The notes: generated by a model not told the origin, from the letters alone. 64,000 bases of DNA from Minisyncoccota bacterium (GCA_041662545.1 JBAZSH010000001.1:46813-110812); one strand, 5' to 3'. Positions 14-31,284 are shown, numbered from the stretch's first letter. A program made the numbers and translations.

Positions 14-421
14 ATGAAAAAAATTCTCATAATTGATGACGACAGAATCTTTGCCAAAGTGCTGGGCGAAGCTCTCATCCAAGAAAAATTTACTCTTGTT
101 GAAGCTACCAACGGCGTTGATGGCCTGACGGTTTTTGAAAAAGAGCGGCCTGATTTTGTTGTTTTAGATATGAAAATGCCCGGTCTGGACGGCATTGGCT
201 TTTTAAAACAGTTGCGTGAAAAAAATGAAAATAAAATTCCAACGCCGATTCTTATTGTCTCAAATTTTTCTGATCTTACTCAAGTGAGCGAAGGGGTTAG
301 TTTGGGAATCAAAGGTTATATTTCCAAAACTGAAAAGACGATAGAGAGTATTGTTGAAGATATAAAAAGAATTCTTGAAACCGAAGAAAGATTACGGCAA
401 AAAACACAACTTGGAAAATAA
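14..421 (+). CDS. Stand-alone response regulator receiver domain protein (CheY-like)
   Basis: 135 aa. The LIIDDD...DFVVLDMKMPGLDG...K receiver signature is present (phospho-acceptor Asp, conserved Thr/Lys). No output domain. The 3' end overlaps the prfB start. Confidence 0.8.
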   Translation: MKKILIIDDDRIFAKVLGEALIQEKFTLVEATNGVDGLTVFEKERPDFVVLDMKMPGLDGIGFLKQLREKNENKIPTPILIVSNFSDLTQVSEGVSLGIKGYISKTEKTIESIVEDIKRILETEERLRQKTQLGK

Positions 422-1286
422 TTCAATTCCAGAGAAAATAGCTAAATTGGAAGCGCTGATGCAACAGCCGGATTTTTGGGCTGATAAAACTAAGGCGCAG
501 GCGATGATCAAGGAACTCCAAGAACTAAAAATTGAAGCGGAGGGTGGTGGTAAATATGATAATGGTGGGGCAGTAATTACGATTTTTTCTGGCGCCGGTG
601 GCGATGACTCGGAGGATTTTTCGGCAATGCTTTTTAATATGTATCGGAAATTTATTGAACAACGCGGTTGGCAACTTTCTATAATTCACCAAAATCAAAA
701 TGACCACGGCGGTTTTCGCAATTTAACTTTTGAAATTTCAAATAAGGGAGTTTATGGAATTTTAAAAAATGAATCGGGCGTTCATCGTTTGGTGCGCATC
801 TCACCATTTAATGCCCAAAAAAAACGCCACACTTCTTTTTCTATGGTGGAGGTGATTCCGAAGTTTGAGAAAATTTCAGAGCTAGAAATTCCCGAGCAAG
901 AACTTAAAGTAGAATTCGCTCGCTCTTCTGGTCCCGGCGGTCAAAATGTTAACAAGCGCGAGACCGCTGTGCGCATTGTTTACTTGCCAACCAACTTAGC
1001 CGTTCATGCCGAAACCGAGCGCAGTCAATCAGCCAATCGCGACAAAGCGCTGGCGATTCTCAAAGGCAAACTTTATAAACTTCGCGAGGACGAACGCAGA
1101 GCCAAAGAGCAGGGAATGTATATTTCCAAAACGACCAGCGTAGAATGGGGCAATCAGATTCGCTCCTATGTTCTTCATCCCTATAAAATGGTTAAGGATC
1201 ACCGCACTGGCGTAGAAACCGCCCAAGTGGACAAAGTCCTCGCCGGCGAGCTGGATGAATTCATTGAAGCGGAGAAGAATTTGTAA
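375..1286 (+). CDS. prfB: Peptide chain release factor 2
   Basis: SPF motif (SPFNAQKKRHTSFS), GGQ motif (SGPGGQNVNK) and a PDFW N-terminal block typical of RF2. The start is ambiguous: ATG at 375 or TTG at 411. It is in the +1 frame relative to the upstream ORF, but no CUU-UGA frameshift site is present. Confidence 0.85.
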   Translation: MKPKKDYGKKHNLENNSIPEKIAKLEALMQQPDFWADKTKAQAMIKELQELKIEAEGGGKYDNGGAVITIFSGAGGDDSEDFSAMLFNMYRKFIEQRGWQLSIIHQNQNDHGGFRNLTFEISNKGVYGILKNESGVHRLVRISPFNAQKKRHTSFSMVEVIPKFEKISELEIPEQELKVEFARSSGPGGQNVNKRETAVRIVYLPTNLAVHAETERSQSANRDKALAILKGKLYKLREDERRAKEQGMYISKTTSVEWGNQIRSYVLHPYKMVKDHRTGVETAQVDKVLAGELDEFIEAEKNL

Positions 1287-1288: not shown

Positions 1289-2053
1289 TTAGCTATTGAT
1301 GATCTGTTCGATTACTTTCTTTGTTTCCTCCGGACCGGAAACGGCAATGGTTTGAACACCTGTCCGGACGACTGGATAATCATTACCGCCCGGCGACAAG
1401 CGATCGCCGATGAAAACCATCTCCGCGACTGGAATGCCAAGATGTTTTTCAATCTGCAAAATGCCGTAGCCCTTGTCTATGCCTTTTCTTGTTACATCAA
1501 TTGAAGTTGAGCCACCAATTTGGATTTCGTAATCAGGAAGCGTTGGCATTAGAAGGGTAATCACTTTTTGTCGTTTTTCCAGCGTTGGATCCCATTTTTC
1601 TTTGAGCTCCATCGGTGCTTGTTGACCTAAAGCAGAGAAAGTAATCTGGCTTTCGCGGTCTTCAATAATTTCTCCGAAAGGTTTAACCGGCGGTTCGTAA
1701 TTTGACTGGGCGAGCGCGACTTTTAGGGCGGAAATAATTTTTACTCTTTCTTCGTCGGAAAGTTTTTCGAAATAAATATTTTTCCAGTTACCATTGTCAA
1801 AACGATAAAAGCTGGAGGCGCAGGTGGGGAAGAGGAAAAGTTTGCCAAGCAGTTCCGTTGGCGCGCGAAAGCTTCCTAAAAATTGTTTCTCAAACTGCTT
1901 GTAGGGTCCGCCCGAAGTTATCGCTACCATTTTTTTGCCGAGAAGTTTTTCCAGAAGTTTCGACATTTCAGCGTCAAGTGGCTGCTTGCTTTCGGTTAGT
2001 GTCCGGTCGAGGTCAAAAATGATAATTCTTTTATTCTTGAAATTCATAGTCAA
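1289..2053 (-). CDS. Eukaryotic-type phosphomannomutase (HAD-IIB, PMM family)
   Basis: 254 aa. FDLDRTLT matches the DxDxT HAD motif I. IGGSTSIDV...KG and FIGDRLSPGGNDYPV blocks align with PMM2-type FFGDKTMPGGNDHEI. Confidence 0.8.
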   Translation of the reverse strand: MTMNFKNKRIIIFDLDRTLTESKQPLDAEMSKLLEKLLGKKMVAITSGGPYKQFEKQFLGSFRAPTELLGKLFLFPTCASSFYRFDNGNWKNIYFEKLSDEERVKIISALKVALAQSNYEPPVKPFGEIIEDRESQITFSALGQQAPMELKEKWDPTLEKRQKVITLLMPTLPDYEIQIGGSTSIDVTRKGIDKGYGILQIEKHLGIPVAEMVFIGDRLSPGGNDYPVVRTGVQTIAVSGPEETKKVIEQIINS

Positions 2054-2059
2054 GTTGGT

Positions 2060-3952
2060 TTATTCCGTCAAGATTTTTAAAATCTCGGAAAGTTTAAGCG
2101 AGGCGGTGCCGACAACGGAGTCGGCGGCGCCATAATAAATTAAAATTTCATCTTTACGAAGAACGGCGCCGCAAGGGAAAACCACATTAGGCACGGCGCC
2201 TTGGATTTCGTAATCTTCCCGCGCCTCAAAAATCGGTAAAGCAGTGCGCGAAATGACAATCGTTGGGTCTTTTAGGTCAAGGAGGGCCGCGCCGACTCGG
2301 TAATGGGTGGTTTTGGAGACGCCGTGGTAAAGCAAAAGCCAGCCGATTTTTGTTTCTATCGGAGGCGCGGCAATGCCAACTTTCGCTCCGTCCCACATTC
2401 CCATCCGCGGTTCGAGAATTTCTATACACTTGTCAATTTTTTGTTTTTCGAAGTTTAAAGAATCGGTGAAATCGGCGCAGATGCTACCACCAATTCGATG
2501 AAGAATCATAAATTTGCCACCGATTTTTTTCGGCAGAACGCAGGCATCTTTGTCGTCGGTGTCGCCGGCTGAAACCAGTTCTGGTTCAGACCAAAGCCAT
2601 TTTTTTGCCAAAAAATCTTTTTCATTGATAGAAGAAATTGCTACTCGGGGTACTCGGCCGTCAAAAGCGGTGTAGAGAATATAAAGCCGGTCACTAATTT
2701 TGGTAAAGCGCGGGTCTTCCACGCCGCCACCTTCGCCGTTACCGGTTTTTTCAAATGGCGCGCGCGGCAAGTAAATCGGTTCTTCGCTTCGCTCGTCAAT
2801 GGTAAAGCCGTTGTTAGTTTTGGCGTAGCCGAAAGTAGAAACATTTTTGTCGGAGACGGCGCGATAGAGTAAATGAATTTTGTCATCAAGTTCAATTGCG
2901 GCTGGATTGAAAACACCTTTGGCTTCAAAAAGTTTTTCTTTCCGTGGCACCAGAATTGGATTTCCGCCAAATCTTTTAACCAATTCTTGTTTTCCTAAGA
3001 GATAGTCAAGCAGTTCTTTGAGATTGGCCGAAGCTAGACAAGAAAAAGTGTCGGCGGCGCCGTAGAAAATTTTTAAATTTTTTCCTTCTACCAAAGCGCC
3101 GGTGGGGAAGGTGATATTGCCGACATTGCCAAATTTTTCATAATGTTCTTCTGCCGTCAAAAAAGCGCCTTTGGTTTTGCCAAGCACGATGCGGGGATTT
3201 TTTAAATCAAGCAAGGCAGCTTCAATGCCAAAACTTATTTCGCCACCACCCGTATAATGCTGAATGTGGGAGTAAATAATGAGCCAGCCTTTTTTAGTGA
3301 GAACAGGCGGCGCGCCGAGCTCCAAGTGGTCGCTCTCGGCGCGCCGCAAAGAAATTTTATGGGCTTCCAAATTTGGATACCATTTGTTCCAAAACTCCGG
3401 CGACCAGATGTCCTCTTCTTTTTCAAACTCAACATAAGCGATTTCCGAAGGTGGTTTGTCGCAGTTTACTGTTAAAAGCGCCGCGAACTTGCCGCCGATT
3501 TTTTGCGGAAAAATCGCCATCGCTTTGGCATTGAAAGGAGTGACTGGGTGTTTTTCAATTTTTTCAAAATCGCTGGTAACGGCGACGGCGATTTTTATGC
3601 CGTCAGCTGAAAAAGGAAATTTAGAAAGAGCAGTATAGAAAATATAATATTTGCTACCGAGTTTTGTTACGCGCGGGTCTTCGCAACCGAATTTTTCCCA
3701 ATCATATTTTGGCGCGATGAGTTGTCGGCGATTTTCAAAATGCGCACCGTCAGCGCTTTCGGCAATACCAACAGAAGAGATACTGATGTGGTTTTGATCC
3801 ATTAATTCTGGTTCTGCCAGCGCTCGGTAAAGGAGAATGGTTTTGTTTTTGTGAATGACGGAGCAGGGATTAAAAGCTCCCGCCGCTTCAAAGGGGTGAT
3901 TATTTACCGGTCCTAAAATCGGATTTTCTGGATGACGTTTAACGATAAACAT
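2060..3952 (-). CDS. Glycoside hydrolase family 130 (DUF377) protein with two tandem GH130 domains
   Basis: 630 aa. It has two copies of the GH130 N-terminal signature: RHPENPILGP...GAFNP...LLYRA and GGNPILVPRKE...GVFNPAAIE...LLYRAVS. EDPRV/EDPRF and YILYTA blocks are also present. Confidence 0.75.
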   Translation of the reverse strand: MFIVKRHPENPILGPVNNHPFEAAGAFNPCSVIHKNKTILLYRALAEPELMDQNHISISSVGIAESADGAHFENRRQLIAPKYDWEKFGCEDPRVTKLGSKYYIFYTALSKFPFSADGIKIAVAVTSDFEKIEKHPVTPFNAKAMAIFPQKIGGKFAALLTVNCDKPPSEIAYVEFEKEEDIWSPEFWNKWYPNLEAHKISLRRAESDHLELGAPPVLTKKGWLIIYSHIQHYTGGGEISFGIEAALLDLKNPRIVLGKTKGAFLTAEEHYEKFGNVGNITFPTGALVEGKNLKIFYGAADTFSCLASANLKELLDYLLGKQELVKRFGGNPILVPRKEKLFEAKGVFNPAAIELDDKIHLLYRAVSDKNVSTFGYAKTNNGFTIDERSEEPIYLPRAPFEKTGNGEGGGVEDPRFTKISDRLYILYTAFDGRVPRVAISSINEKDFLAKKWLWSEPELVSAGDTDDKDACVLPKKIGGKFMILHRIGGSICADFTDSLNFEKQKIDKCIEILEPRMGMWDGAKVGIAAPPIETKIGWLLLYHGVSKTTHYRVGAALLDLKDPTIVISRTALPIFEAREDYEIQGAVPNVVFPCGAVLRKDEILIYYGAADSVVGTASLKLSEILKILTE

Positions 3953-3974
3953 AGGATAATTTTAGCACATTTCG

Positions 3975-5069
3975 TTATCGGGCGAGAGATTTAAGGAGCG
4001 AGGCGAGAGGCATAGAGGCGACGCAAACGCGCTTGTCGCCACCGCCGTAGTAGACCCGAAGAATATTTTGCTTGTCCAAAGTGGCGCCGCAGGCGTAGAC
4101 GACACCGGGTTTGCCGTCATTTTCATACCATTCATCTGGCGCAAGGATAGGAAAGTTGGCTCGACCAATTTCTTTTTTGGGATTTTTTAGGTCAAGCAAA
4201 AGAGCGCCGAGTTTATAGCGATGTGGTTCTTTTTTATCCATCGCATGATACAAAACCAACCAGCCGTCTTTAGTTTTAAGCGGCGGTGGCCCGGCGCCGC
4301 GCAGATTACTGTCCCAACCTTTGTGATTTTTATTCTGCTTGAAAACGCTTTTAATTTTCTTTTTGCCAGTTGCCAAATCTTCCAACTGGTCGACGAAATC
4401 AATCTGAATTTTTGGCGTGATGCTGTGAAGGATGGCAAACTTACCTTTAATTTTTTCCGGAAATAATACCCAATTTTTATTAATCTCGCCGGGCGGTGAA
4501 ATGAAAATTGATTTGCTCCAGCGCCACCTCTTCTTTTCCAAATCGCTTTCTTTGATGGAAATAACACCGACGCGGATGAAATCCCAGCCATCAAAACCAT
4601 TGAAGGTAACATAAATTTTGCCGTCAATTGCCACCATTCGCGGGTCCTCGACGCCACCGCAGGAACCACCCGAGGGATACATCACTGGATTGAAATTGCT
4701 CACACCGGCGCGGGAGAGTGCGTCCAGGCGAGGGCTTGACATACCAAAAACCGGAAAGGGAAATTTGTCGGTGAAATTTTCACCATCGGTGCTGGCGGCA
4801 TAACCGAGTCGCGAAACGCCATCATTGCCGATGGCGCGATAAAGTAGATGAGTTTTGCCGTTTTGGTCGCGCAAAGCCGCCGGATTAAAAACGCCATTGG
4901 CCTCAAAATGATTGCTAGATTCAGGGCTGAGAATGGGATTTTTAGATGTCCGTTGGAGTTTGGAAATTTTTGCCAGTGACAGTTTTTTGATTTTTGATCT
5001 GGTATTTAGCCAGGAAAAAAAAGCTGCCACCAGTGCGAGCATTAAGCCTACTGACAAAAGCCAGCCCAT
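3975..5069 (-). CDS. Membrane-anchored GH130 (DUF377) glycosidase/phosphorylase
   Basis: 364 aa. N-terminal TM helix (LLSVGLMLALVAAFFSWL) followed by KNPILSPE...GVFNPAAL...LLYRAIG and GGVEDPRMV GH130 blocks. Confidence 0.75.
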   Translation of the reverse strand: MGWLLSVGLMLALVAAFFSWLNTRSKIKKLSLAKISKLQRTSKNPILSPESSNHFEANGVFNPAALRDQNGKTHLLYRAIGNDGVSRLGYAASTDGENFTDKFPFPVFGMSSPRLDALSRAGVSNFNPVMYPSGGSCGGVEDPRMVAIDGKIYVTFNGFDGWDFIRVGVISIKESDLEKKRWRWSKSIFISPPGEINKNWVLFPEKIKGKFAILHSITPKIQIDFVDQLEDLATGKKKIKSVFKQNKNHKGWDSNLRGAGPPPLKTKDGWLVLYHAMDKKEPHRYKLGALLLDLKNPKKEIGRANFPILAPDEWYENDGKPGVVYACGATLDKQNILRVYYGGGDKRVCVASMPLASLLKSLAR

Positions 5070-5166
5070 AATTTTTGATTAGTAATAATAAATAATTATA
5101 TCATTTTTCCCTTTCCTTTATATCAAGGGGATTGTGGATAAAAAAGATAGGTAATATAATAGATGA

Positions 5167-5847
5167 GTGATTTATTTTGATAATGTTTCAAAAATTTACT
5201 CGGAGGACTCATCGGCTTTGCGCGACATTACCTTGTCTATTGAGCCGAAAGAATTTATTTCCATCGTCGGTCATTCTGGCGCCGGCAAGACAACTTTGCT
5301 AAAAATGATTTTGGCTGAGGAAAGGCCGTCCTCGGGTAAAGTGTTTTTTGATAAAATTGATGTCCACCAGCTTTCCCGCCCGGAAATTACTAAATATCGC
5401 CGGCGCATTGGCACGATTTTTCAGGATTTTCGTTTGATTCCCGATAAGACCGCCTACGAAAATATCGCCTTTGCTATGGAAGCGGCGGGGCGGTTGGACG
5501 ATGAAATTGAATCAGATGTGCCCCATGTTTTGGATCTGGTGGATTTAGGCGATAAGCTTTGGAATTTTCCCCACGAACTTTCCGGCGGTGAAAAACAGCG
5601 AGTAGCCATTGCGCGGGCGATTGTTAATCAACCGGAAATTTTGATGGCCGACGAGCCGACTGGCAATTTGGATCCCCTTAACACTTTTGAAATTGTTCAG
5701 ATTTTGAAAAAAATTAATGATTTGGGTACGACGGTAATTTTGACCACTCATAATAAAGGGGTGATTGATTCGCTCGGCAAGCGCGTAATTACCCTAGACG
5801 CCGGCCGCATCATCCGCGATGACCAAAAGGGACACTATTTATTATAG
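5167..5847 (+). CDS. ftsE: Cell-division ABC transporter ATP-binding protein FtsE
   Basis: GTG start. Walker A GHSGAGKTTLLK, ABC signature LSGGEKQRVAIARA and Walker B ILMADEPTGNLD are present, with end-to-end similarity to E. coli FtsE. No ftsX follows. Confidence 0.85.
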   Translation: MIYFDNVSKIYSEDSSALRDITLSIEPKEFISIVGHSGAGKTTLLKMILAEERPSSGKVFFDKIDVHQLSRPEITKYRRRIGTIFQDFRLIPDKTAYENIAFAMEAAGRLDDEIESDVPHVLDLVDLGDKLWNFPHELSGGEKQRVAIARAIVNQPEILMADEPTGNLDPLNTFEIVQILKKINDLGTTVILTTHNKGVIDSLGKRVITLDAGRIIRDDQKGHYLL

Positions 5848-5849
5848 AA

Positions 5850-8627
5850 ATGAAAAAAATGAAAATTAAAATTCTGGCGGTAGTAATTTTTATTTTTCCT
5901 TTTTTCGCAAACGCCGCCACTTTCGTTTCTGGTGATATTTCTACTAACACCACTTGGACCAAAGCCGAAAGCCCCTACATTATTTCTGACCATTCTTTTA
6001 TAAATGTTTCTGTTGGCACCACTTTGACAATAGAACCTGGCGTAGTCGTGAAATTTGGCAATCGTTCCCGTTTAAATATTTATGGTTCATTAAAAGCTGT
6101 TGGCATAGCTAGTGACAAAATTTATTTTACCTCCTTAATAAACGATGCCATTGGCGGCGATGATAATGGTGATGGTAATTTAACCGAACCATCGCCTTAT
6201 GATGATTGGAATATTTTTTTAAGAAGCGGTTCGTATGATATTGAATTTGAGAATGTAGGATTTAGTTACAGTTACGATACCGTATGGGCATCAGAATCAG
6301 AAGTTTCTTTTGTTAATGTCTCGTTTACTGATTGTTTTGATGCTATTGGTGCTTACAAATCCAAGATAGTTATTAATACTGTCGAAGTCAGGGATATTGA
6401 TGGTAGTGTGGTTTGGGGAGACAATGGTAAATTTGAAATTGAGAGTTTAAATGTAGATGGGGTATATGGATTTTATCCACCTTTGGATTTTTTTCGCGGC
6501 GCTGAGATAACTATAGATAATTCTAAAATTACGAATGTTGGGCTAGCTCGGGCATTAAGAATAGATGGTTCACACGCTACTGTGACTAATTCGGTTTTTT
6601 CTGGTGGGTTATATAGCGGCATTGAAATTCATGATGATTTTTTTAAAAAAATTCCTTCAACTTTGTCAATCACTAATTCCATAATTGAAAATTTTGTAGA
6701 CAACGGATTATATATCTATTCAAGTAAGGTTGATATTAGTAAAACTAAAATTTCCAGCAATCGGCATGGGATAAGAATAAATGATTGGTCCGGTCATTCC
6801 AGGTCCGAAGTCGCTGTTTCTCAAAGTTCAATTGTTGACAACAGTGATTATGGAATTTACACCAATGGATTGAATTCTGTTGATGTTCGCAATAATTGGT
6901 GGGGTGACTCAAGTGGCCCTTTTCACCAAACACTCAATTCGTCCGGTTTAGGCAATGCTGTTTTTGGCAATGTTTTGTTTGACCCGTGGCTGGCGAGCGA
7001 TCCGACAGCAGAAAAAAGAATTGACCCGGTGCTCATTATCCCAGGCATTCTCGGCTCAGCGGAGAAAGACGGCGTCTGGTTGATTGATCCGATTTTTCAT
7101 ACCTATGACGACTTAATCGCCACTCTGGTGGCAAACGGCTATGTTGAAGGTCAAGATCTTTTTACATTTCCCTATGATTGGCGTTTTTCTAATATACTGA
7201 CGGCGGTGGCGTTGAAAAATAAGATTGCGGAAGTGAAAAATATTTGCCAGTGCGACAAGGTGGATTTGGTAGCGCATTCAATGGGTGGTCTCGCGGCGCG
7301 GCAATATATTCAATCTCCCCAGTACGCCGATGATGTGGACCAATTAATTTTTCTCGGCACACCACACCTCGGAGCACCAAAGGCGTATTATTCTTGGGAA
7401 GGAGCAACTGTTCCGCCCAACGATCCAGTTTATTCGGTCATCAAATTTATGTTATGGAGCGAAGCGTTTAAGCTTGATCAAAGTTTATTTGATTATATTC
7501 ATCAATCAGTTTTTTCAATTAGAGAGTTATTGCCAATTTATGATTATCTGACTCTCAAGGATTCTGGTATTGTGGAAAAGTATCCTAACGGTTATCCAGC
7601 AAACTCTTTTCTTGAAAATCTTTCCGCGGGCACAGATGAACTCTTGAATTCCGGTGTTGAGATTATCAACATTGTTGGCAATACAGGAAATTCCACTATT
7701 ATTTCAATTGAAGTAGCATCATCAACAGAACCAAATTTGTGGGAGCATGGCAAACCTGAAATTGTGAGTTATGGGGGAGGAGACGAAACTGTTCCAATAA
7801 CAAGTGCAATTTTAACTTTTTCAGATTCTTATGTTTTTGATAGTAGACATAATAAACTACCGACAATTGCTGAAGGGATAGTTTATAAAGAACTTACTAC
7901 TAAAGATGCTACTACTTTGGTGGATAATTGGGATTTAATCAATTTAAAATTATTGCTAATAAAAATCCTTTCTCCCGCCGACATTCAAGTAATTGCTCCC
8001 GATGGTAGTATTGTTGGCAAGGATTTTGCTACCGGACAGGAAATCAATCAAATTCCCGGTGCCTTTTATTCTGGTTTCCAGACCGACAATGAATATGTGA
8101 CCATTCCTAATCCACAACCTGGCGATTATATTGTTAAAACTATTGGCACTGGCTCCGGCAGTTATATTGTGGCAACCAGTTTAATCTCTAATACTGGCAG
8201 TGTTGAGAAAGAAACCATTGGCACAACAAAACCGGATTTTGTCGCTCAAGTGGAAGTCAGTGTGTCTGGTGATGACTCGCTGGAAATTTTACCTCCTGAT
8301 GTTCAGGCGATTACGCCAGATTTCGTCATTGCCGATATTCAACTTGCCTATGACAATGGCTGGCTCAAAGACAAGAAAATCCGAGACAAACTCATCAAAG
8401 AAATCAAAGCAATGATTAAAGTTGAGAAGAAAATTGAAAAAATTGAGACCAAAGTCAAAGAGAAAAACATTGAAAAGAAAATTGAAAAACTAGAGGTCAA
8501 AGTGGATAAGGTGCTTGCCAAGGCATTAAAAACAGAATTAAAGTTGTATAATGAAGGGAAGATTTTGACCGATGAAGGATTTAATTTAATTAAAAACGAT
8601 ATTGAATTATTAATGTTAATTTATTGA
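5850..8627 (+). CDS. Secreted multidomain protein: parallel beta-helix repeats + LCAT/PGAP1-like alpha/beta-hydrolase (lipase) + K/E-rich coiled-coil tail
   Basis: 925 aa with a signal peptide (MKKMKIKILAVVIFIFPFFANA). The N-terminal half has beta-helix repeat motifs (NNWWGDSSGPF). The central region has PVLIIPGILGS...YDWR and the nucleophile elbow AHSMGG seen in lecithin:cholesterol-acyltransferase-like lipases. The C-terminus has KIEKIETKVKEKNIEKKIEKLEVKVDK repeats. The gene starts 3 nt after the ftsE stop. Confidence 0.6.
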   Translation: MKKMKIKILAVVIFIFPFFANAATFVSGDISTNTTWTKAESPYIISDHSFINVSVGTTLTIEPGVVVKFGNRSRLNIYGSLKAVGIASDKIYFTSLINDAIGGDDNGDGNLTEPSPYDDWNIFLRSGSYDIEFENVGFSYSYDTVWASESEVSFVNVSFTDCFDAIGAYKSKIVINTVEVRDIDGSVVWGDNGKFEIESLNVDGVYGFYPPLDFFRGAEITIDNSKITNVGLARALRIDGSHATVTNSVFSGGLYSGIEIHDDFFKKIPSTLSITNSIIENFVDNGLYIYSSKVDISKTKISSNRHGIRINDWSGHSRSEVAVSQSSIVDNSDYGIYTNGLNSVDVRNNWWGDSSGPFHQTLNSSGLGNAVFGNVLFDPWLASDPTAEKRIDPVLIIPGILGSAEKDGVWLIDPIFHTYDDLIATLVANGYVEGQDLFTFPYDWRFSNILTAVALKNKIAEVKNICQCDKVDLVAHSMGGLAARQYIQSPQYADDVDQLIFLGTPHLGAPKAYYSWEGATVPPNDPVYSVIKFMLWSEAFKLDQSLFDYIHQSVFSIRELLPIYDYLTLKDSGIVEKYPNGYPANSFLENLSAGTDELLNSGVEIINIVGNTGNSTIISIEVASSTEPNLWEHGKPEIVSYGGGDETVPITSAILTFSDSYVFDSRHNKLPTIAEGIVYKELTTKDATTLVDNWDLINLKLLLIKILSPADIQVIAPDGSIVGKDFATGQEINQIPGAFYSGFQTDNEYVTIPNPQPGDYIVKTIGTGSGSYIVATSLISNTGSVEKETIGTTKPDFVAQVEVSVSGDDSLEILPPDVQAITPDFVIADIQLAYDNGWLKDKKIRDKLIKEIKAMIKVEKKIEKIETKVKEKNIEKKIEKLEVKVDKVLAKALKTELKLYNEGKILTDEGFNLIKNDIELLMLIY

Positions 8628-10350: not shown

Positions 10351-11277
10351 ATGGCGATTTTTAAGATAAAAAATAATAAGTTAGAAAAGTTTAAAGAAAG
10401 AGAAGCTTTTTTGGAAAAAGATATCCAAAAGCTTACTGAATTAAACTTGAGTGAGATTTTCAAGTTGGAGTATATGTCTTCGCAATTTTCTCTAAAAAAT
10501 TTGAGAATTGATACTTTGTGTTTTGACCCTGAAAATAAAGCCTTTGTTATTATTGAATACAAAAAAGATAGAAGTTTCAGTGTCATCGATCAAGGCTTTG
10601 CGTACCTATCTTTACTGTTAAACAATAAGGCGGATTTTTTGGTTGAGTATAACGAAAAAAATAAATCAAAAACATTGTCGCGCGAAAGTGTAAATTGGTC
10701 TCAGTCCAAGGTAATTTTTATTTCTCCATTTTTTTCATCTCACCAGAAAGAGGCCATCAATTTCAAAAATCTACCAATTGAATTATGGGAGATAAAATAT
10801 TATGGTAGTGATTTAGTTGAATATAAGAATATTGAACCGCTAGAATCATCAGAAAAAATAGAAACCCTTACTGGTAGCAAGTTTATTAAAGAGGTGATAA
10901 AAGAGGTAAAAAATTATGATTTAGAACATCATCTCAAAAAAGGATCTGACAAAACAAGGAAATTATTCTTTGTGTTAAAAGAAAAAATTCTTGAGTTAGG
11001 AGAAATCAACGAAAAATATTTACAATTTTATGTGGGCTATAAAATGGGCGACAGCTACATTAGTTTTTGTCAGATACATTTTTATAAAGAAAAATTGGAG
11101 ATATCAATTCTTATACCGGATAAAAAATTATCTGATTCTAAAAAGTGGGCTCGAAAAGTACCCAAATCTTATGGCTGGGCGAAAAATAGCAAATTTTTTA
11201 ATATCAAAACTGAAAAGGATATTTCGTACACAATGAATTTGATAGAGCAGTCTTACGAGTTTAATAAAAGTAGATAA
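10351..11277 (+). CDS. PD-(D/E)xK nuclease-fold protein (NucS/DUF91-like N-terminal region), hypothetical
   Basis: 308 aa. The block CFDPENKAFVIIEYKKD fits a D...ExK restriction-endonuclease-like catalytic motif. It is the first gene of a tight co-directional operon. Confidence 0.45.
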   Translation: MAIFKIKNNKLEKFKEREAFLEKDIQKLTELNLSEIFKLEYMSSQFSLKNLRIDTLCFDPENKAFVIIEYKKDRSFSVIDQGFAYLSLLLNNKADFLVEYNEKNKSKTLSRESVNWSQSKVIFISPFFSSHQKEAINFKNLPIELWEIKYYGSDLVEYKNIEPLESSEKIETLTGSKFIKEVIKEVKNYDLEHHLKKGSDKTRKLFFVLKEKILELGEINEKYLQFYVGYKMGDSYISFCQIHFYKEKLEISILIPDKKLSDSKKWARKVPKSYGWAKNSKFFNIKTEKDISYTMNLIEQSYEFNKSR

Positions 11278-11280
11278 TTT

Positions 11281-12498
11281 ATGGTAAGAGAAGCATCAAT
11301 CAAAAATCTTACAAATGCGAAACGGGCAAAGAATGATGAGTTTTATACTCAGTACATCGATATTCAAAAAGAAATTGAAAAGTATTTAGATTACAACCCT
11401 AATACATTTCGAGCCAAAATAGTGTACTGCAACTGCGATGACCCGTTTGAGAGCAATTTCTTTCGTTATTTTGTGCTAAATTTCAACAACCTTGGATTGA
11501 AGCAGCTAATCACAACGAGCTACAAACCATCGCCTGTCGCCAACACGCAACTGGGATTATTTGGTGATGACAAAACACTTGTAAAAGCAAAAGGTCGGCC
11601 GAAGGTAACGGCGAACAAGTTCATTATCAACGAGGTGCACGACATAGATGGCGATGGCGAGTTTAACTTGAAGGATGTTGCAAAACAGTTAAAGATAAAT
11701 AAACACAACGAGTGGATGCCACTAAGTGGTGATGGTGATTTCCGTAGCGATGAGTGCGTCGAACTACTCAAGCGGTCTGACATCGTAATAACCAATCCTC
11801 CGTTTAGTTTGTTTCGCGAATATGTTAAACAACTTTTTGATTACAAAAAAAGGTTTCTGATAATCGGCAATATGAATGCGATTACCTATAAAGAAGTATT
11901 CCCTTTAATTAAGGATAATAAAATATGGCTTGGGGCTGGTAAAAATGACGGACGAAATGTATGGTTTCAAATTCCTGATCATTATGAAAAATTTCATAAG
12001 GAGGAAAATGGTAAGAAATATGCTTTTGTCGCAGGAACAATTTGGTTTACGAACCTTGACCATGGGCGCCGTCATCAACCGTTGCCGTTGATGACCACGA
12101 CAGAGGTAATTAAATTTGGTGCAAAAAAGTCATTCGAAAAGTACGATAACTACAACGCAATAGAGGTTCCACTGGTTAAATACATCCCAAATGATTACGA
12201 TGGCGTGATGGGTGTACCAATTAGTTTTCTTAGCAAATATAACCCCGATCAGTTTGAGATCTTAGGAGCTACTCAAAGAGGTTGCCATGATGAGGTTCCC
12301 GACACAAAAAAGTATGATGATTACTGGGAAGTAAGACAGAATGGTGAAAAAACAGGATCGTCTGGTGGAAAAACAAATGAAAATGCCAATTTGGTTGAGA
12401 ATGACGGGAAAAAGAATTACTTTATAAATAATGAAAGCCGAATAATTCAATCTGCTTACCAAAGAATTTTTATAAGACACAAGAAAGCTAAAAAATAA
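11281..12498 (+). CDS. DNA N6-adenine methyltransferase, EcoRI-methylase-like family (NPPF motif)
   Basis: 405 aa. N-terminal NDEFYTQY...VYCNCDDPFESNFF and catalytic IVITNPPFSLF (motif IV, (D/N)PP(F/Y)) are typical of gamma-class adenine methyltransferases of the M.EcoRI family. Confidence 0.7.
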   Translation: MVREASIKNLTNAKRAKNDEFYTQYIDIQKEIEKYLDYNPNTFRAKIVYCNCDDPFESNFFRYFVLNFNNLGLKQLITTSYKPSPVANTQLGLFGDDKTLVKAKGRPKVTANKFIINEVHDIDGDGEFNLKDVAKQLKINKHNEWMPLSGDGDFRSDECVELLKRSDIVITNPPFSLFREYVKQLFDYKKRFLIIGNMNAITYKEVFPLIKDNKIWLGAGKNDGRNVWFQIPDHYEKFHKEENGKKYAFVAGTIWFTNLDHGRRHQPLPLMTTTEVIKFGAKKSFEKYDNYNAIEVPLVKYIPNDYDGVMGVPISFLSKYNPDQFEILGATQRGCHDEVPDTKKYDDYWEVRQNGEKTGSSGGKTNENANLVENDGKKNYFINNESRIIQSAYQRIFIRHKKAKK

Positions 12499-12501
12499 AT
12501 T

Positions 12502-13242
12502 ATGGCTAAAGTTATAAAATTATTTGATCCAATTTATATGAAGGCGTTAAAACTTGCTTCAGAAATTCATTCTAAATCAAGAGAACAAATTGATGTAACA
12601 AAAAAGGATAAAAAATTAGTAATTTATTATTTGCAAGGAGGTTGTATCACGCATGCATACTTAGCAATTAATCATTGGTTGTCGGGCGATCTTGGTGCCC
12701 CTTTTATCCACAAGAGGATAATACAAGAAATGGGAAATGTGGCACTCTTTATTTCTGTATTACCGGAAGAACACAGGTATATAAAATCTTTTTTTGAAAA
12801 AAGTATAATAAGTTTTCCAAATATTTTTTCGACAAAATGGGAAAAAGAAAAAAAGGTAATTTTGAATAAAATGGAATGGGATGATCAAACTTTAAAAAAA
12901 TGGCAGGACAATGCGAAGTTATTAAATGATGGTTTTTCGAATGCAATGCATGCGCAAATTGAGACAGCCGGTTGGAACTCAGATAAATATACGGGGGAAT
13001 ATGATTATCGTCTTCAATGGAATGAATTTCAAGGAGGATTTATAAGGAATTTTGATTTTGGGCATTATATTATAATTCCTACTATTAAACCTTTACTCAT
13101 AAATAAAGAAGTGCTTTTAATAGAAAAAGAAGATTTGGATAAGATAAATCAAATTTTGGAAGTAGTTTTTAATACCGGATTAGATATATTTAATAATTTA
13201 CGAGACAGTGTTTTAAGTAAACAACAGGTAAACACTGGCTAA
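12502..13242 (+). CDS. Hypothetical protein (candidate restriction/effector partner of the MTase)
   Basis: 246-aa ORF starting 3 nt after the MTase stop. No recognizable motifs; placement is the only functional clue. Confidence 0.3.
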   Translation: MAKVIKLFDPIYMKALKLASEIHSKSREQIDVTKKDKKLVIYYLQGGCITHAYLAINHWLSGDLGAPFIHKRIIQEMGNVALFISVLPEEHRYIKSFFEKSIISFPNIFSTKWEKEKKVILNKMEWDDQTLKKWQDNAKLLNDGFSNAMHAQIETAGWNSDKYTGEYDYRLQWNEFQGGFIRNFDFGHYIIIPTIKPLLINKEVLLIEKEDLDKINQILEVVFNTGLDIFNNLRDSVLSKQQVNTG

Positions 13243-13259
13243 TATAAACAATAAATAAT

Positions 13260-14102
13260 ATGAAAAACAACACTTCGCTTGCCATTTTTGAAACTCACAA
13301 AATTCGCCGGTATTTTGACGAGAAAACAGAAACTTGGTTTTTTTCGGTTATTGATATTGTGGCGGCTTTGACGGAACAGAATGATTTTCAAGTGGCTAGA
13401 TCGTATTGGAAAAAGCTTGCACAAAGACTCAGGGATGAAGAAAGTCAAGTGGTGACAAAATGTCACCGGTTGAAAATGATGGCTCAAGACGGCAAGATGC
13501 GAGAAACCGATGCCGCCGATGTGGAAATTATTTTGCGCCTGATTCAATCAGTGCCAAGCAAAAAAGCCGAACCTATCAAATTGTGGCTGGCGAAAGTCGG
13601 TTATGAACGAATGCAGGAAATGAGCGACCCGGAAATAGCGCTGAATCGTTCTCGCGCATATTGGCAAAAACAAGGAAGAAGCGAGAAATGGATCCAGCAA
13701 CGGATGATGGGGCAAGAGACTAGAAATAAACTCACTGACTATTGGGCGGAAAGCGGTGTAAAAAAAGGCGAAGAATTTGCCATTCTTACAAATATAATTC
13801 ACCAAGAATGGAGCGACTTGTCGGTAAAGGCGCACAAAAATCTTAAGGGACTGAAAACGCAAAATCTTCGTGATCATATGAGCGAAGAAGAATTGATTTT
13901 CACCGCGCTGGCGGAGCTTTCTACCAGAAGAATTGCTGAAACTGACAAAACACAAGGTTTGGAAGATAATAAAATTCCTGCGATTAAGGGCGGTCGGATT
14001 GCCAAGGGCGCAAGAAAGGCGCTTGAAGAAAAAACAGGGAGGTCGGTTATAACTGGGAATAATTATTTGCCAAATAAACAACTGATTAAAAAATTAAAAT
14101 AA
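13260..14102 (+). CDS. Bro-N domain / DNA-damage-inducible protein D (DinD)-like protein
   Basis: N-terminal [24 protein letters not shown] matches the Bro-N pattern. The C-terminal part ([20 protein letters not shown]...[25 protein letters not shown]...[13 protein letters not shown]) resembles E. coli DinD. Confidence 0.6.
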
Positions 14103-14103
14103 T

Positions 14104-15273
14104 ATGAAAACAATTTTAAAAACCAATATCACTGTCAAAGATATTTGCGAAGGATTCATCTATAACGAACTGGAAGGCAGGGGTTTGCTTGGCTTGTCTG
14201 GCAAACTCACCATTCAGCCGGAATATCAGCGAAATTATATTTATGCATCCGATGGCGGTAAGCGAGAAATGGCCGTCATTGAGTCAGTTCTTAAAGAATA
14301 TCCAATAGGGTTGATTTATTTCAATAAAGTTTCTAATGATAAATTTGAAGTATTGGACGGTCAACAGCGCATCACAAGTCTTGGACGATTTATCACCGAC
14401 AAATTTGCCATCAAAGATGAAAATGGGATGCCGCAGATTTTTGGTAATATGGCGAGGGATAAGCAAAAAAAGATTTTGGAAACGAAATTACTGATTTACG
14501 AATGCGAAGGTACTGAAAGTCAGATAAAAGAGTGGTTCAAGACTGTAAATATTGCCGGTGTTCCGCTCAACAATCAGGAATTACTCAACGCAGTATATTC
14601 TGGCCCATTTGTAACTAAGGCTAAAGAGGAATTCAGTAATAGTCAAAACGCTAATATTCAAAAATGGAGTGCGTATGTTTCTGGTAGTGCCAACAGGCAG
14701 GAATTTTTGGAATGTGCTTTTGATTGGGTAAGCAAGGGAAGCATTGGCGACTACATGAGCAAGCATCGCAAAGACAAAAACATTGATGAGCTAAAAAAAT
14801 ATTTCAATACTGTCATCGATTGGGTATCTAGCATATTTACTGATGTAGAAAGCGAAATGCGCGGGCTTAAATGGGGGCTACTTTACGAGGAATATCACAA
14901 AAAGGCATATAGCCCAGCGAAAGTAGCGACCGAGGTGCGCAAGCTCTACGGAGATCCATACATCAAAAACCGCAAAGGCATTTTTGAGTATATTCTCGGT
15001 GGTTCCAGTGATACAAAATTGCTTGAAGTTCGGGTTTTTGATGAAGCGACTAAAAGATCTACTTACGAATCACAGACCGCTAAAGCAAAGAAAAAAGAAG
15101 AATCAAATTGTTCTCTCTGCGCTGTCGGACATGATGCGAACAAGGGTAAAATTTGGAGTTTTGCTGAAATGGAAGCAGACCATGTATCAGCGTGGAGCAA
15201 GGGTGGCGCTACTTCGGCAAAAAATTGCCAGATGCTCTGCAAAACTCATAATCGAGCAAAAGGAAATCAGTAA
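14104..15273 (+). CDS. DUF262 (ParB-like DGQQR NTPase/nuclease domain) fused to C-terminal HNH endonuclease; type IV-restriction-like
   Basis: 389 aa with the DGQQRITSL motif of DUF262/ParB-like proteins. The C-terminal CSLC...[12 protein letters not shown]...[10 protein letters not shown] is a canonical HNH motif. The gene starts 1 nt after the dinD-like stop. Confidence 0.7.
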
Positions 15274-23626: not shown

Positions 23627-24754
23627 ATGGCTTTTTTTTCAAAAATTTTTAACAAACTGACGGGTGACGGTGGTGGCACTAGCGTTGTCGGTATTGACAT
23701 TGGATCCTCGGCAGTAAAAATTGTAGAGCTTAAAACAAAAGGTGGTCGGGCGGTGCTTGGCACCTATGGTGCGTTAGCTCTTGGTCCTTACGCCAACAGT
23801 TCTGTTGGTCAAGTAACTAAATTGCCAAATGAAAAAGTTGCCGAGGCCTTGCGCGATATTTTGCGCGAAGCTAACGCTACTACTAAAGTTTGTAGTTTTG
23901 CCATTCCTCTGTCAGCCAGTTTATTGTCGTTAATTGAGATGCCGGTTTTGGATCAAAAGCAATTACCGCAGATGGTGCCCATTGAAGCCAGAAAATATAT
24001 TCCAGTGCCAATGAGTGATGTAACTTTGGATTGGTGGATAATACCAAAGACCGAGCGAGAGACAACTTCCAGCCCAGATGATCCGATGACTAAGATTCAA
24101 AAAGCCAAAATGGTGGATATTCTTTTGGTGGTGATTCAAAATGCCGCTCTTAATAATTATCGGGAAATTGTTAGGTTGACCGGTCTCGATGTTTCCTTTT
24201 TTGAGATTGAAGCGTTTAGTACCATTAGAGCAGTGATGAATAGGGAAACGATGCCGGTGATGATTTTTGATATGGGTGCCGGCGCCACCAAACTTTATAT
24301 TGTAGAAATGGGTATTGTCAGAACTTCTCACACTATCAATCGTGGTTCGCAAGACATCACTTCGGCCTTGGCGCAATCGCTCGGTATTAATGTGGTTGAA
24401 GCGGAAAAATTAAAAAGGGACAAGGGATTAATTGCCGAGGGTATTGCCTCCGGTACTGTTGAAGCCACCTCAGTAATTTTGGGTTATATTTTTGCCGAAG
24501 TTAATCGGGTGCTGATTGGTTACCAAAAGAAAAGCGGCAAAGTGGTGCGGCGGGTGATTTTGACTGGCGGTGGATCAGCATTAAAGGGGATTTTACAATA
24601 TGCCAAAGAGCATCTGGAATCAGAGGTGGAGTTGGCTGACCCATTTGCCAAGGTAGATGCGCCGGCTTTCCTCCAGGGGGTGCTTAAAGACGCCGGTCCG
24701 CAATTTACGGTTGCCTTGGGTGTTGCCCTGCGCCAGCTTCAAGAGTTGGGGTAG
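23627..24754 (+). CDS. pilM: Type IV pilus assembly protein PilM
   Basis: VVGIDIGSSAVKIVELK indicates an actin-like ATPase fold. The protein is 375 aa and opens the pil operon. Confidence 0.8.
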   Translation: MAFFSKIFNKLTGDGGGTSVVGIDIGSSAVKIVELKTKGGRAVLGTYGALALGPYANSSVGQVTKLPNEKVAEALRDILREANATTKVCSFAIPLSASLLSLIEMPVLDQKQLPQMVPIEARKYIPVPMSDVTLDWWIIPKTERETTSSPDDPMTKIQKAKMVDILLVVIQNAALNNYREIVRLTGLDVSFFEIEAFSTIRAVMNRETMPVMIFDMGAGATKLYIVEMGIVRTSHTINRGSQDITSALAQSLGINVVEAEKLKRDKGLIAEGIASGTVEATSVILGYIFAEVNRVLIGYQKKSGKVVRRVILTGGGSALKGILQYAKEHLESEVELADPFAKVDAPAFLQGVLKDAGPQFTVALGVALRQLQELG

Positions 24755-24812
24755 GTGGTTGTTGATAAGATTAACGCTTGCGGACAGAAAAAGGTGTATA
24801 ATGTAAAGGAGT

Positions 24813-25406
24813 ATGGATGGTAATTTTCAAAAATCTTTTATACCCAGAGAATCTTTGGGTGGTGAAGTGAGTTTTGGTTCTAGACCTAGTCTGGGAAGTT
24901 TTACGCTTATCGCCATTGTGATTTTTTTGATTTCCGCCGGTGCTTTTGGGGTAACTTATTTGTATAAACAATCTATCAAGAAAAACATTGCCCAATTGGA
25001 TATTGAGTTAGCTCGGATGCAAGAAATTTTTCAGCCGGCCACTGTTGCTGAATTTGAGAAATTAAGTAGCCGTTTGGCGGCAGCCAATAAGTTAGTTGAT
25101 AATCATATCGCTCTCTCAAAAATTTTTGATGTTTTGGAGGAAGCAACTCTTAAGTCAGTTTATTTCAGTAGTTTTTCTTTGACTAGTAGCGGAGGGGAAT
25201 TTTCGCTGGGCTTGGGTGGTGTCGCTAAAAATTTTAGCTCGGTAGCTTTGCAATCAGACGCTTTCCGTATAAACCCAGCCTTCACGATTTCTACTTTTTC
25301 CAATCTTAATCTGGATGAAAAGGGCAATGTGGTGTTTGGCGTTGCCGCCTTGGTTGATCCAAAAATTTTATCTTATAAGCACAATATTGCCCAAACTGAT
25401 CAATGA
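24813..25406 (+). CDS. PilN-like pilus assembly protein
   Basis: Single N-terminal TM followed by a coiled coil. It lies directly after pilM. Confidence 0.5.
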   Translation: MDGNFQKSFIPRESLGGEVSFGSRPSLGSFTLIAIVIFLISAGAFGVTYLYKQSIKKNIAQLDIELARMQEIFQPATVAEFEKLSSRLAAANKLVDNHIALSKIFDVLEEATLKSVYFSSFSLTSSGGEFSLGLGGVAKNFSSVALQSDAFRINPAFTISTFSNLNLDEKGNVVFGVAALVDPKILSYKHNIAQTDQ

Positions 25407-25966
25407 AAAATATCACCCCCTTTATTTTAATAGTAGCAGCCATCTGGATTTTTTGGGGTTATACCAAACCTATTTATGAAGAGACCGGCGCGCTTCGGGG
25501 AGTCAGAACTGGTTATGAAAATAAATTGGCACAAGCCAATGAGTTTCGACAACAGTATGAAAATCTTGCCACTGCCTACCAGAGTTTCTCTGAAACCGAT
25601 TTAGCCAATCTTTCACATTTGGTGCCCGATGAGATTGATCCCATCCGTCTTGTCATTGAGGTCAATGAGATCGCCGCCAAACAGGGTTTGCTAATTGAAG
25701 ATATCGCTGTTAGTGAATCTGGAAATACAGCAAAGGAAGCTAATTTGCCAGCCGTTGAAACAAGTTTTAATAGTGTTTTTAGTAATGTTGATTTAAGTTT
25801 TTCAGTGACTGGTAGTTACGGACAATTTGTCGCCTTTCTTCATGATTTGGAGAGCAGTCTACGGATTTTAGATGTGACTGATATAAAATTTTCTTTGGCG
25901 AAAGATTCCGTCAACGGTGGTAGTTATAATTTTAGCGTAGGTTTGAAGACCTATTGGTTACAATAA
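25403..25966 (+). CDS. PilO-like pilus assembly protein
   Basis: N-terminal TM followed by a coiled coil and a beta-rich region. It overlaps the upstream gene by 4 nt. Confidence 0.5.
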   Translation: MKNITPFILIVAAIWIFWGYTKPIYEETGALRGVRTGYENKLAQANEFRQQYENLATAYQSFSETDLANLSHLVPDEIDPIRLVIEVNEIAAKQGLLIEDIAVSESGNTAKEANLPAVETSFNSVFSNVDLSFSVTGSYGQFVAFLHDLESSLRILDVTDIKFSLAKDSVNGGSYNFSVGLKTYWLQ

Positions 25967-25969
25967 TTT

Positions 25970-26272
25970 ATGAATCCAAATAAATCAAAAAAGGGGAAAA
26001 TGGCAATCGTCATTGTGGCAATAATTGTCGCCGCCTTTATTGGTTATTCGTTGTTTTTTTCCAGCAAGAATAGTGATTTGTCCCCACTTTTGCCACAAGA
26101 GACAGACCAAAGTCAGACGGGGAACGATTTGCTTATGATATTTGCCAAATTATCGGCACTTAACCTGGACCCGACTGTTTTACAAAATCCAGTTTTTATT
26201 TCGTTGAAGAATTTCTCGCGAGAAATTCCCAGTGAGCCTTCGGGCCGGTCTAATCCGTTTGCCCCGATTTAG
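25970..26272 (+). CDS. Small TM protein of the pilus operon (PilP-like, C-terminal NPF motif)
   Basis: 100 aa with one TM. It ends in ...GRSNPFAPI. Confidence 0.35.
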   Translation: MNPNKSKKGKMAIVIVAIIVAAFIGYSLFFSSKNSDLSPLLPQETDQSQTGNDLLMIFAKLSALNLDPTVLQNPVFISLKNFSREIPSEPSGRSNPFAPI

Positions 26273-26292
26273 TTTTATTTCATTTTTTCCAA

Positions 26293-28014: not shown

Positions 28015-28040
28015 ATAAGTTATAATCTAATTCACTAAAT

Positions 28041-28436
28041 ATGGCCGAACAAAAAAAGGAAAAAGTTTTGATAGTAGACGACGACAAGTTTCTTTTAAGC
28101 ATGTATACCGTCAAGTTTAAGAACGCTGGTTTTGAGGTAGATATGGCGAACGGTGGGGCAGAGGCGTTGAGTAAACTTCAAGATGGCAATGCGCCGGACA
28201 TTCTTATTTTAGACTTGATTATGCCCGGTATGGATGGCTATGAATTTCTGGCGAAAGTTCGGGAACAAAAATTGGTGCCAAAGGCGACGGTGGTTGTTTT
28301 AACTAATCAAGGTCAGCCGGAGGATATTGAGAAAGCCAAGAAATACAATGTCCAAGGTTACATTGTCAAAGCCAGCACCATTCCGTCGGAAGTTCTTGAA
28401 GAAGTAATGAAAATACATAAAAGTAAAAATAATTAG
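28041..28436 (+). CDS. Response regulator receiver protein (CheY/PilH-like) embedded in the pil operon
   Basis: 131 aa. VLIVDDD...DILILDLIMPGMDG...K signature. Confidence 0.8.
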   Translation: MAEQKKEKVLIVDDDKFLLSMYTVKFKNAGFEVDMANGGAEALSKLQDGNAPDILILDLIMPGMDGYEFLAKVREQKLVPKATVVVLTNQGQPEDIEKAKKYNVQGYIVKASTIPSEVLEEVMKIHKSKNN

Positions 28437-28437
28437 A

Positions 28438-29499: not shown

Positions 29500-29503
29500 T
29501 TTT

Positions 29504-30712: not shown

Positions 30713-30812
30713 CAATGATTTATCCACAGGCGATTTGCTTGCTATTTATAAGGGTTTGGTATAATAGGAGGGTCGAAAAAATTAGTAGTTTTTATAATTT
30801 AATTTTTATTCA

Positions 30813-31251: not shown

Positions 31252-31284
31252 GCCAAAAGAAAATAAGTGGAGTATAATGGTGAT

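Follow-up and report, generated by a model that had tools for sequence, protein, structure and literature searches.

Three tightly packed open reading frames (ORFs) on the minus strand of a 64,000-nucleotide stretch of DNA from a Minisyncoccota bacterium (GCA_041662545.1 JBAZSH010000001.1:46813-110812; hereafter the window) probably form an operon for the cytoplasmic turnover of beta-1,2-mannosides, in which three specialised GH130 paralogues are coupled to the interconversion of mannose phosphates (probability about 0.6). Gene 1 (3975..5069) codes for a membrane-tethered GH130 protein of 364 amino acids (aa), here called S-type. Gene 2 (2060..3952) codes for a 630-aa fusion of two GH130 domains, namely an N-terminal T-type domain (aa 1-322; 2987..3952) and a C-terminal R-type domain (aa 323-630; 2063..2986). 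Gene 3 (1289..2053) codes for a HAD-IIB sugar-phosphate mutase of the phosphomannomutase (PMM)/alpha-phosphoglucomutase (alpha-PGM) family, with 254 aa when read from a TTG at 2053 and 252 aa from the ATG at 2047 chosen by other gene callers. The intergenic gaps are 22 nt between genes 1 and 2 and 6 nt between genes 2 and 3. This layout, three co-oriented genes at 1289-5069, had been described in a first reading made from the sequence alone (hereafter the original prediction). Its domain assignments, a PMM-family protein and three GH130 domains with two of them in one gene, are borne out by Pfam, since PF03332 matches gene 3 with 54 bits (cutoff 22.4) and PF04041 matches gene 2 in two stretches with 319 bits and gene 1 with 121 bits (cutoff 26). 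The protein of gene 1 matches NCBI WC673_00280, from a metagenome-assembled genome of a Candidatus Paceibacterota bacterium, with 100% identity.

In the proposed pathway, the R-type domain would split beta-1,2-mannobiose or beta-1,2-oligomannan with inorganic phosphate (Pi) to alpha-mannose-1-phosphate (Man-1-P) in a reversible reaction. The HAD-IIB mutase would interconvert Man-1-P and mannose-6-phosphate (Man-6-P), and a cupin mannose-6-phosphate isomerase (PMI), operon-encoded in most relatives and either located elsewhere or absent in this genome, would interconvert Man-6-P and fructose-6-phosphate. The fused T-type domain would act by hydrolysis on a linkage or end-product that the phosphorylase cannot process, for instance taking off a mannose or aglycone, and the S-type protein, tethered at the inner face of the membrane, would use a nucleophile or leaving group other than phosphate.

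Gene order and partner genes in Patescibacteria

A scan of one genome per species retrieved relatives of the anchored GH130 protein from at least 548 species, living in many habitats. The 80 loci retrieved for comparison all belong to Patescibacteria, under labels including Taylor-, Nomura-, Kaiser-, Adler- and Zambryskiibacteria and Paceibacterota. The gene for the anchored-type protein is followed by the double-GH130 gene on the same strand in all 80 of them, and the two-domain fusion is intact in each of the 75 loci that span both domains. A HAD mutase gene is adjacent in about 60 of the 80, directly downstream in most and just upstream in others. As this order recurs in loci of different species while the flanks differ (the response regulator, prfB and ftsE genes that flank the module in the window are not conserved among the 80 loci), the arrangement is not due to chance.

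Clustering of the flanking ORFs added a single conserved partner, a cupin (about 117 aa) that occurs in 53 of the 80 loci and usually stands first in the operon. Its match is to PF01050 (type-II mannose-6-phosphate isomerase), with 70-80 bits (cutoff 23.6); examples lie at 5887-6246 in locus L067, 5179-5529 in L044 and 290-637 in L029, and the others in 50 further related loci. In some genomes, the three GH130 domains are joined in a single protein of about 980 aa, in the operon order S-T-R and with neither anchor nor signal peptide. Such triple fusions are exemplified by the database proteins P0124, P0126 and P0127 (about 971-996 aa), in which LHS-type, LLT-type and LHR-type domains follow one another and no membrane helix is present. 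Judging from these sequences, the GH130-mutase module is a real and ancient operon; the synteny and the PMI cupin as a partner together give good support to a link between the GH130 enzymes and mannose phosphates, which the original prediction had proposed for the mutase.

No conserved transporter, ManC (GDP-mannose pyrophosphorylase) or glycosyltransferase gene accompanies the operon in more than 12 of the 80 loci, no secreted mannanase or glycanase was found beside it among the flanking ORFs of these loci, and no mannose-related gene was found elsewhere in the window.

The GH130 domains and their phosphate-binding sites

Residues were mapped by aligning 63 S-type, 76 T-type and 76 R-type orthologues with the references 7FIP, 9FJ8, 5B0P, 4UDK and 1VKD (five sequences, rebuilt from HMMER alignments). 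In Uhgb_MP, R168 and H231 are Pi ligands and D104 is the proton donor, while the +1 subsite comprises R59, Y103 (or Glu), R150 (or Lys) and D304; the choice between Y103/R150 and a Glu/Lys pair distinguishes beta-1,4 from beta-1,2 linkages (PMC7660257). A further phosphate-contacting Arg, R242, has been described in Uhgb_MS (PMC12814180), and GH130 enzymes with acidic residues in place of the basic ones are beta-1,2-mannosidases (PMC4599007).

The six residues for sugar binding and proton donation (N, R, E, D, K and D) are invariant among the orthologues of all three clades. They correspond to N62, R78, E141, D142, K198 and D345 in the S-type protein, to N28, R43, E91, D92, K143 and D301 in the T-type domain, and to N349, R364, E412, D413, K468 and D611 in the R-type domain. 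The proton donor is thus D142, D92 and D413, respectively, accompanied in each case by the Asn and Asp of the -1 subsite, and the linkage determinant is the Glu/Lys pair (E141/K198, E91/K143 and E412/K468). All three domains are closest to the beta-1,2-mannoside phosphorylases Teth514_1789 (7FIP), Teth514_1788 (9FJ8) and Lin0857 (5B0P), with which the predicted fold agrees; beta-1,4 GH130 enzymes match far more weakly, at E 1e-15 or weaker. Specificity for beta-1,4-mannan or N-glycans is contradicted by the Glu/Lys signature together with this ranking of solved relatives.

In a neighbour-joining tree, the S-, T- and R-types are each monophyletic; identities are 53-58% among members of one type and 31-38% across types. 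The three are old paralogues, each maintained separately, and not decaying copies. What the alignments of the three clades show to differ is the site facing the anomeric carbon.

Of the three, the R-type domain carries the complete signature of a beta-1,2-mannoside phosphorylase, adding H485-R486, K524 and H543 to the residues listed above. Its phosphate ligands R486, K524 and H543 (Arg, Lys/Arg and His) are present in 76 of 76 orthologues, and its best matches in the PDB are the beta-1,2-mannobiose phosphorylase 7FIP (E 9e-56) and the 1,2-beta-oligomannan phosphorylase 9FJ8 (E 3e-52). From this pattern we infer a bona fide beta-1,2-mannoside phosphorylase, as in EC 2.4.1.339/340. The NCBIfam equivalog profile for beta-1,2-mannobiose phosphorylase, NF052550, has a cutoff of 450 and scores 388 with the fused protein and 190 with the anchored one. 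The AlphaFold2 (AF2) model of the fused protein consists of two propellers (pLDDT 93.6, pTM 0.90). Membership in GH130 is shown by the PF04041 scores and by the predicted five-bladed beta-propeller fold, with a Foldseek TM of 0.8 to GH130 structures.

In the T-type domain, all three basic phosphate ligands are replaced, by T161, H209 and S228 in the alignments to 7FIP, 9FJ8, 5B0P and 4UDK. The replacement is general among the 76 orthologues, which have Thr (51), Ser (16) or Ala (9) at the first position, His (50), Gln (23) or Arg (3) at the second, and Ser (68), Ala (7) or Cys (1) at the third. No compensating conserved basic residue was found near the phosphate site in these orthologues; K166 in loop L2 was considered for this role and rejected, as it is not conserved. 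Acidic residues, on the other hand, are fixed, with D165, E211 and an Asp or Glu at 208 each present in 76 of 76. Because every basic phosphate ligand has been lost and conserved acids have been gained, the T-type domain most likely acts hydrolytically. Loss of basic ligands in the manner of subfamily GH130_3 thus extends to all three in the T-type domain and to two in the S-type protein. The GH130_3 profile NF058598 gives 178 bits with the T-type domain (cutoff 550), and this domain has no signal peptide; neither of the two domains that have lost ligands appears to belong to the known hydrolase subfamily.

Regarding the S-type protein of gene 1, the solved structures closest to it are those of Teth514_1788 and Teth514_1789 (E 1e-47 and 1e-42; Foldseek TM 0.80-0.84), and its AF2 model (pLDDT 87) has a long N-terminal helix (residues 2-32) followed by a propeller. 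The two phosphate-binding Arg positions are occupied by S216 and L256, which leaves H275 as the sole retained phosphate ligand. The codon of Ser216 lies at 4422..4424 (minus strand), at the equivalent of R168 in Uhgb_MP and R177 in Teth514_1789. Among the 63 orthologues, this position holds Ser (52), Thr (6) or Gly (5) and never Arg, and the R242 position holds Val, Ile or Leu. Among the 120 database homologues that match the anchored protein best, the motif EKINGKFAILHS hardly varies. An invariant Arg of the S-type clade, R257, stands one residue out of register with the phosphate-ligand position.

Every beta-1,2 GH130 phosphorylase tested so far also has a weak transferase activity with GDP-mannose, and where a short L2 loop goes together with a reduced number of phosphate contacts, a transferase is to be expected whose phosphorylase activity is low or absent (PMC12814180). 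In GT108, dedicated synthases lack the corresponding Arg (PMC10913872). The anchored protein aligns to the Teth514 enzymes without gaps across loop L2. With small and hydrophobic residues in place of two Arg and a short L2 loop, the S-type protein qualifies as a transferase candidate under the published decision rule for GH130 and GT108. It is most likely not a normal phosphorylase but an enzyme that uses GDP-mannose or otherwise transfers beta-1,2-mannosyl groups without phosphorolysis.

The hydrophobic helix of gene 1 (5004..5066, minus strand; about aa 2-22, with a Kyte-Doolittle value of 2.1 over about aa 3-21) is followed by a basic stretch, RSKIKK...K. No basic residue precedes it and five lie within the 15 residues after it. 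All 63 short-form orthologues share this bias, averaging 4.1 Lys or Arg in the 15 residues after the helix and 0.22 before. By the positive-inside rule, the helix is thus predicted to be an N-out/C-in anchor with the catalytic domain in the cytoplasm, which is consistent with the existence of soluble variants and of triple fusions without anchor; an enzyme placed in this way would not act on external glycans. A surface-exposed anchored enzyme is contradicted by the charge bias and the soluble and fused variants taken together. In 18 of the 80 loci, long forms occur in which the helix is replaced by a soluble N-terminal domain of about 270 aa (e.g., P0008, P0063 and P0113; L001, L002, L009 and L011 are among the loci). 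This additional domain has no match in Pfam and may be a degenerate propeller. About a quarter of lineages thus appear to do without membrane tethering.

The mutase and the competing readings

Gene 3 has the catalytic residues D14, D16, T18, S47, K194, D217, N224 and D225, which make up the DxDxT motif, the Ser/Thr, the Lys and the GDxxxxGGND motif of the family; at least 95% of 60 orthologues share them. The HAD-IIB profile TIGR01484 is matched with 80 bits (cutoff 41.8). A Cof-type phosphatase is ruled out, TIGR00099 giving 40 bits against a cutoff of 137. By sequence alone, the sugar specificity of the mutase could be that of a PMM (EC 5.4.2.8) or of an alpha-PGM (EC 5.4.2.2). The parsimonious reading is a Man-1-P/Man-6-P mutase, on account of the conserved operon with the GH130 genes and the PMI cupin.

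Several points weigh against beta-1,2-mannoside turnover as proposed here. The PMI cupin was found neither in the window by tblastn nor in the 10 kb beyond its start, so that the complete route from Man-1-P to fructose-6-phosphate is not encoded with the module at this locus, and no transporter or ManC gene is linked to the operon among the flanking ORFs of the 80 loci. The best PDB match of gene 3 is the atypical alpha-PGM of Lactococcus lactis (4BND; E 1e-45, 36% identity), an enzyme that is reportedly inactive on mannose phosphates. With regard to the hydrolytic assignment, the central region of the T-type domain retrieves no GH130_3 structures in the search. In the S-type clade, R257 might still reach the phosphate, and loss of the Arg does not prove transferase function, since the Arg/His residue of GT108 is insufficient on its own as a switch (PMC10913872). 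More generally, specificity and mechanism are read here from residue patterns set on about 20 characterised enzymes.

The nearness of gene 3 to 4BND raises the alternative that the HAD protein is a housekeeping, glucose-specific alpha-PGM of the pgmH kind and a mere neighbour of the GH130 genes. The identity to PMM is indeed lower (29%), but the gap is modest and members of the family often accept both sugars. Furthermore, the gene adjoins GH130 genes in about 60 of 80 loci of different species, and the co-occurring PMI cupin needs a Man-1-P/Man-6-P mutase to be joined to the GH130 products. We consider this alternative improbable.

A very improbable reading, given these data, is one that builds on the original prediction, in which three phosphorylases, one of them displayed at the surface, harvest beta-1,4-mannans or N-glycan cores from a host or the environment without spending ATP. 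Much of its groundwork holds: membership in GH130 and in the PMM family, the FDLDRTLT and GGNDYPV motifs of the HAD protein, the hydrophobic N-terminal helix on one GH130 protein and the distinction from Cof-type phosphatases were all recovered, and GH130 pathways are known to save ATP (PMC4264767). The mutase was called a eukaryotic-type PMM, which is right as to the PF03332 family, but it is nearer to the L. lactis alpha-PGM than to eukaryotic-type PMMs (E 1e-20 to 1e-10; the 29% identity is to 6I5X). Phosphorolysis, proposed for all GH130 domains, can be retained for the C-terminal domain of gene 2; in the other two, the set of phosphate ligands is not complete, a loss conserved across 63-76 orthologues and one that the original prediction had itself given as a sign of refutation. 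The beta-1,4 substrates of this reading (mannan, Man-Glc and Man-GlcNAc of N-glycans) are at odds with the Glu/Lys pair that all three domains have instead of Tyr/Arg and with the beta-1,2 enzymes being the best structural relatives. Harvesting at the cell surface conflicts with the predicted cytoplasmic orientation of the anchored domain, and uptake of host or environmental mannan conflicts with the lack of an accompanying transporter or secreted mannanase.

Another alternative, possible although we hold it to be rather unlikely, is an endogenous reserve cycle, in which the operon would serve both synthesis and breakdown of a beta-1,2-mannan located inside the cell or at the membrane, comparable to the mannogen of Leishmania. 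Fructose-6-phosphate, Man-6-P, Man-1-P and polymer would be linked by reversible steps, with the S-type protein as synthase or primer, the R-type domain as reversible phosphorylase and the T-type domain as trimming hydrolase. The relatives have a four-gene unit (PMI, PMM and the genes for three GH130 domains) that is complete in itself and includes neither a transporter nor a secreted glycanase; all its GH130 domains are predicted to be cytoplasmic. The operon spans many habitats, yet beta-1,2-mannans are seldom found free in nature (PMC4264767), beta-1,2 GH130 phosphorylases polymerise from Man-1-P and weakly from GDP-mannose (PMC12814180), and GT108 offers a precedent for loss of the Arg in dedicated synthases (PMC10913872). 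However, there are no reports of a beta-1,2-mannan from Patescibacteria, the operon has no linked gene for GDP-mannose pyrophosphorylase, about a quarter of lineages have no membrane anchor, and the transferase activity of GH130 enzymes was regarded as possibly irrelevant to physiology by the authors who described it (PMC12814180). As a tentative and rather speculative extension, Paceibacteria may run a mannogen-like cycle entirely from GH130 paralogues, with the HAD mutase and the cupin PMI linking the polymer to fructose-6-phosphate. If so, the S-type protein would represent the first case of a GH130 enzyme dedicated to beta-1,2-mannosyl transfer or priming, and these ultra-small cells would gain a carbohydrate store costing little or no ATP.

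Relation to known systems and the rest of the window

The best relatives in sequence and fold of the R-type domain and the S-type protein are Teth514_1788 and Teth514_1789 from Thermoanaerobacter sp. X-514 (GH130_6; 9FJ8 and 7FIP), a 1,2-beta-oligomannan phosphorylase and a beta-1,2-mannobiose phosphorylase, respectively. The Glu/Lys signature, the short L2 loop, the cytoplasmic location and the tandem arrangement of paralogous GH130 genes in one cluster are common to both systems. However, identity is only about 37-42%, and both Thermoanaerobacter enzymes keep all their phosphate ligands, whereas here the ligands are lost in two of three domains, one pair of domains is fused, one domain is tethered and a HAD mutase is the partner (with the PMI cupin in relatives). 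The Thermoanaerobacter cluster in turn adds an ABC importer, a GH5 enzyme, ManC and a GT4 enzyme (PMC4264767).

Like the T-type domain, the GH130_3 beta-1,2-mannosidases of Bacteroides (BT3780 and BACOVA_03624) have no basic phosphate ligands, carry the Lys determinant and place acidic residues near the anomeric side; they differ in being secreted, the T-type domain lacking a signal peptide and being fused to a phosphorylase. The catalytic-base residues of the BT3780 type are Glu227 and Glu268. The GT108 enzymes of Leishmania (MTP1-7, mannogen) share the five-bladed propeller, the beta-1,2-mannoside chemistry and the Man-1-P products, and their paralogues likewise split into synthase-like and phosphorylase-like forms at the phosphate-binding Arg. 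They are only remotely related (Foldseek E 1e-8, about 14% identity), and their synthases have His at the Arg position where the S-type protein has Ser.

With PgmH (4BND) and PMM1/PMM2, gene 3 has in common the HAD-IIB core, the C2-type cap, the DxDxT and GDxxxxGGND motifs and the Arg residues for the substrate phosphate. PgmH of L. lactis is presumably glucose-specific; the genomic context of gene 3, with GH130 and in relatives the PMI cupin, points to mannose phosphates instead. In the classical GH130 route of Bacteroides and Ruminococcus (phosphorylase, PMM and PMI, leading to fructose-6-phosphate), the logic is the same, namely ATP-free activation of mannose into glycolysis. The classical route is concerned with beta-1,4 linkages and employs PMMs of the alpha-D-phosphohexomutase type, importers and epimerases, in contrast to the beta-1,2 signature, the HAD-type mutase, the minimal cupin PMI of the relatives and the three diverged GH130 domains found here.

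This sequence of phosphorylase, PMM and PMI is already known for beta-1,4 systems, as are tandem beta-1,2 phosphorylases for Thermoanaerobacter. What appears to be new is the conserved operon of Patescibacteria itself, with the fixed fusion of a ligand-less domain to a canonical phosphorylase, a large helix-tethered GH130 clade having Ser for the phosphate-binding Arg, and the partnership with a HAD-type mutase and a minimal cupin PMI. In the searchable literature on GH130 in the candidate phyla radiation (CPR), the only mention found was a passing one of two GH130 genes in one CPR genome (PMC7143001).

The CPR or Patescibacteria have tiny genomes in which very few conserved metabolic modules are understood, and this one, of about 3.8 kb, recurs in the 548 or more species of the scan, where "hypothetical" and "GH43/DUF377" are the most frequent annotations of its genes. 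For these organisms, it suggests a role of beta-1,2-mannosides as nutrient or reserve. Beta-1,2-mannosides are rare glycans, and we know of no bacterial source of them. For GH130 enzymology, three paralogues with an identical sugar-binding site and differing nucleophile sites constitute a natural experiment, which therefore bears on a question that recent papers have raised, whether dedicated transferases, or other mechanisms that are neither phosphorolytic nor of the GH130_3 kind, exist in this family. The operon would be of high interest should the S-type protein turn out to be a GH130 enzyme dedicated to transfer, or should there be a bacterial reserve of beta-1,2-mannan.

At its two ends, the operon meets genes of the opposite strand. 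Gene 1 is separated from the divergent ftsE by a 97-nt intergenic region, in which an extended -10-like element, TGATATAAT (5095..5103, minus strand), lies 26 nt upstream of the ATG of gene 1. Read from the sequence as a consensus match only, it is a possible operon promoter; a scan of the locus for promoters and terminators gave no decisive sites. Gene 3 ends 2 nt from the convergent prfB, coding for release factor 2 (RF2; 375-1286, plus strand), which aligns with no more than the final 100 positions of the PCRF profile and whose longest ORF shares 47 nt with the response-regulator ORF upstream. It encodes either an N-terminally short RF2 or an RF2 with a frameshifted start. On the other side (5167-8627, plus strand), ftsE is followed, in place of a recognisable ftsX, by a gene for a 925-aa protein with an N-terminal hydrophobic segment, a right-handed beta-helix region and an LCAT/PGAP1-like lipase domain.

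Otherwise, the window fits a CPR genome, with type IV pilus genes, an F-ATPase, ribosomal proteins and a restriction/defence island. Between ftsK and the L10/L12 genes lies a 1213-aa ORF (46637-50278, plus strand), which, like its neighbours at 45512-46189 and 50290-51075, has no Pfam match. The segment at 10351-15273 (plus strand) is low in GC (0.33-0.36, compared with about 0.42-0.45 elsewhere) and holds genes for an EcoRI-type adenine methyltransferase, a DUF5655 protein, a Bro-N protein and a GmrSD/HNH endonuclease; it is probably a horizontally acquired defence island. The type IV pilus cluster (23627-31719, plus strand) comprises PilM, PilO, two T2SSE ATPases, PilC and two pilins, with a stand-alone response-regulator receiver gene inserted between the two ATPase genes.

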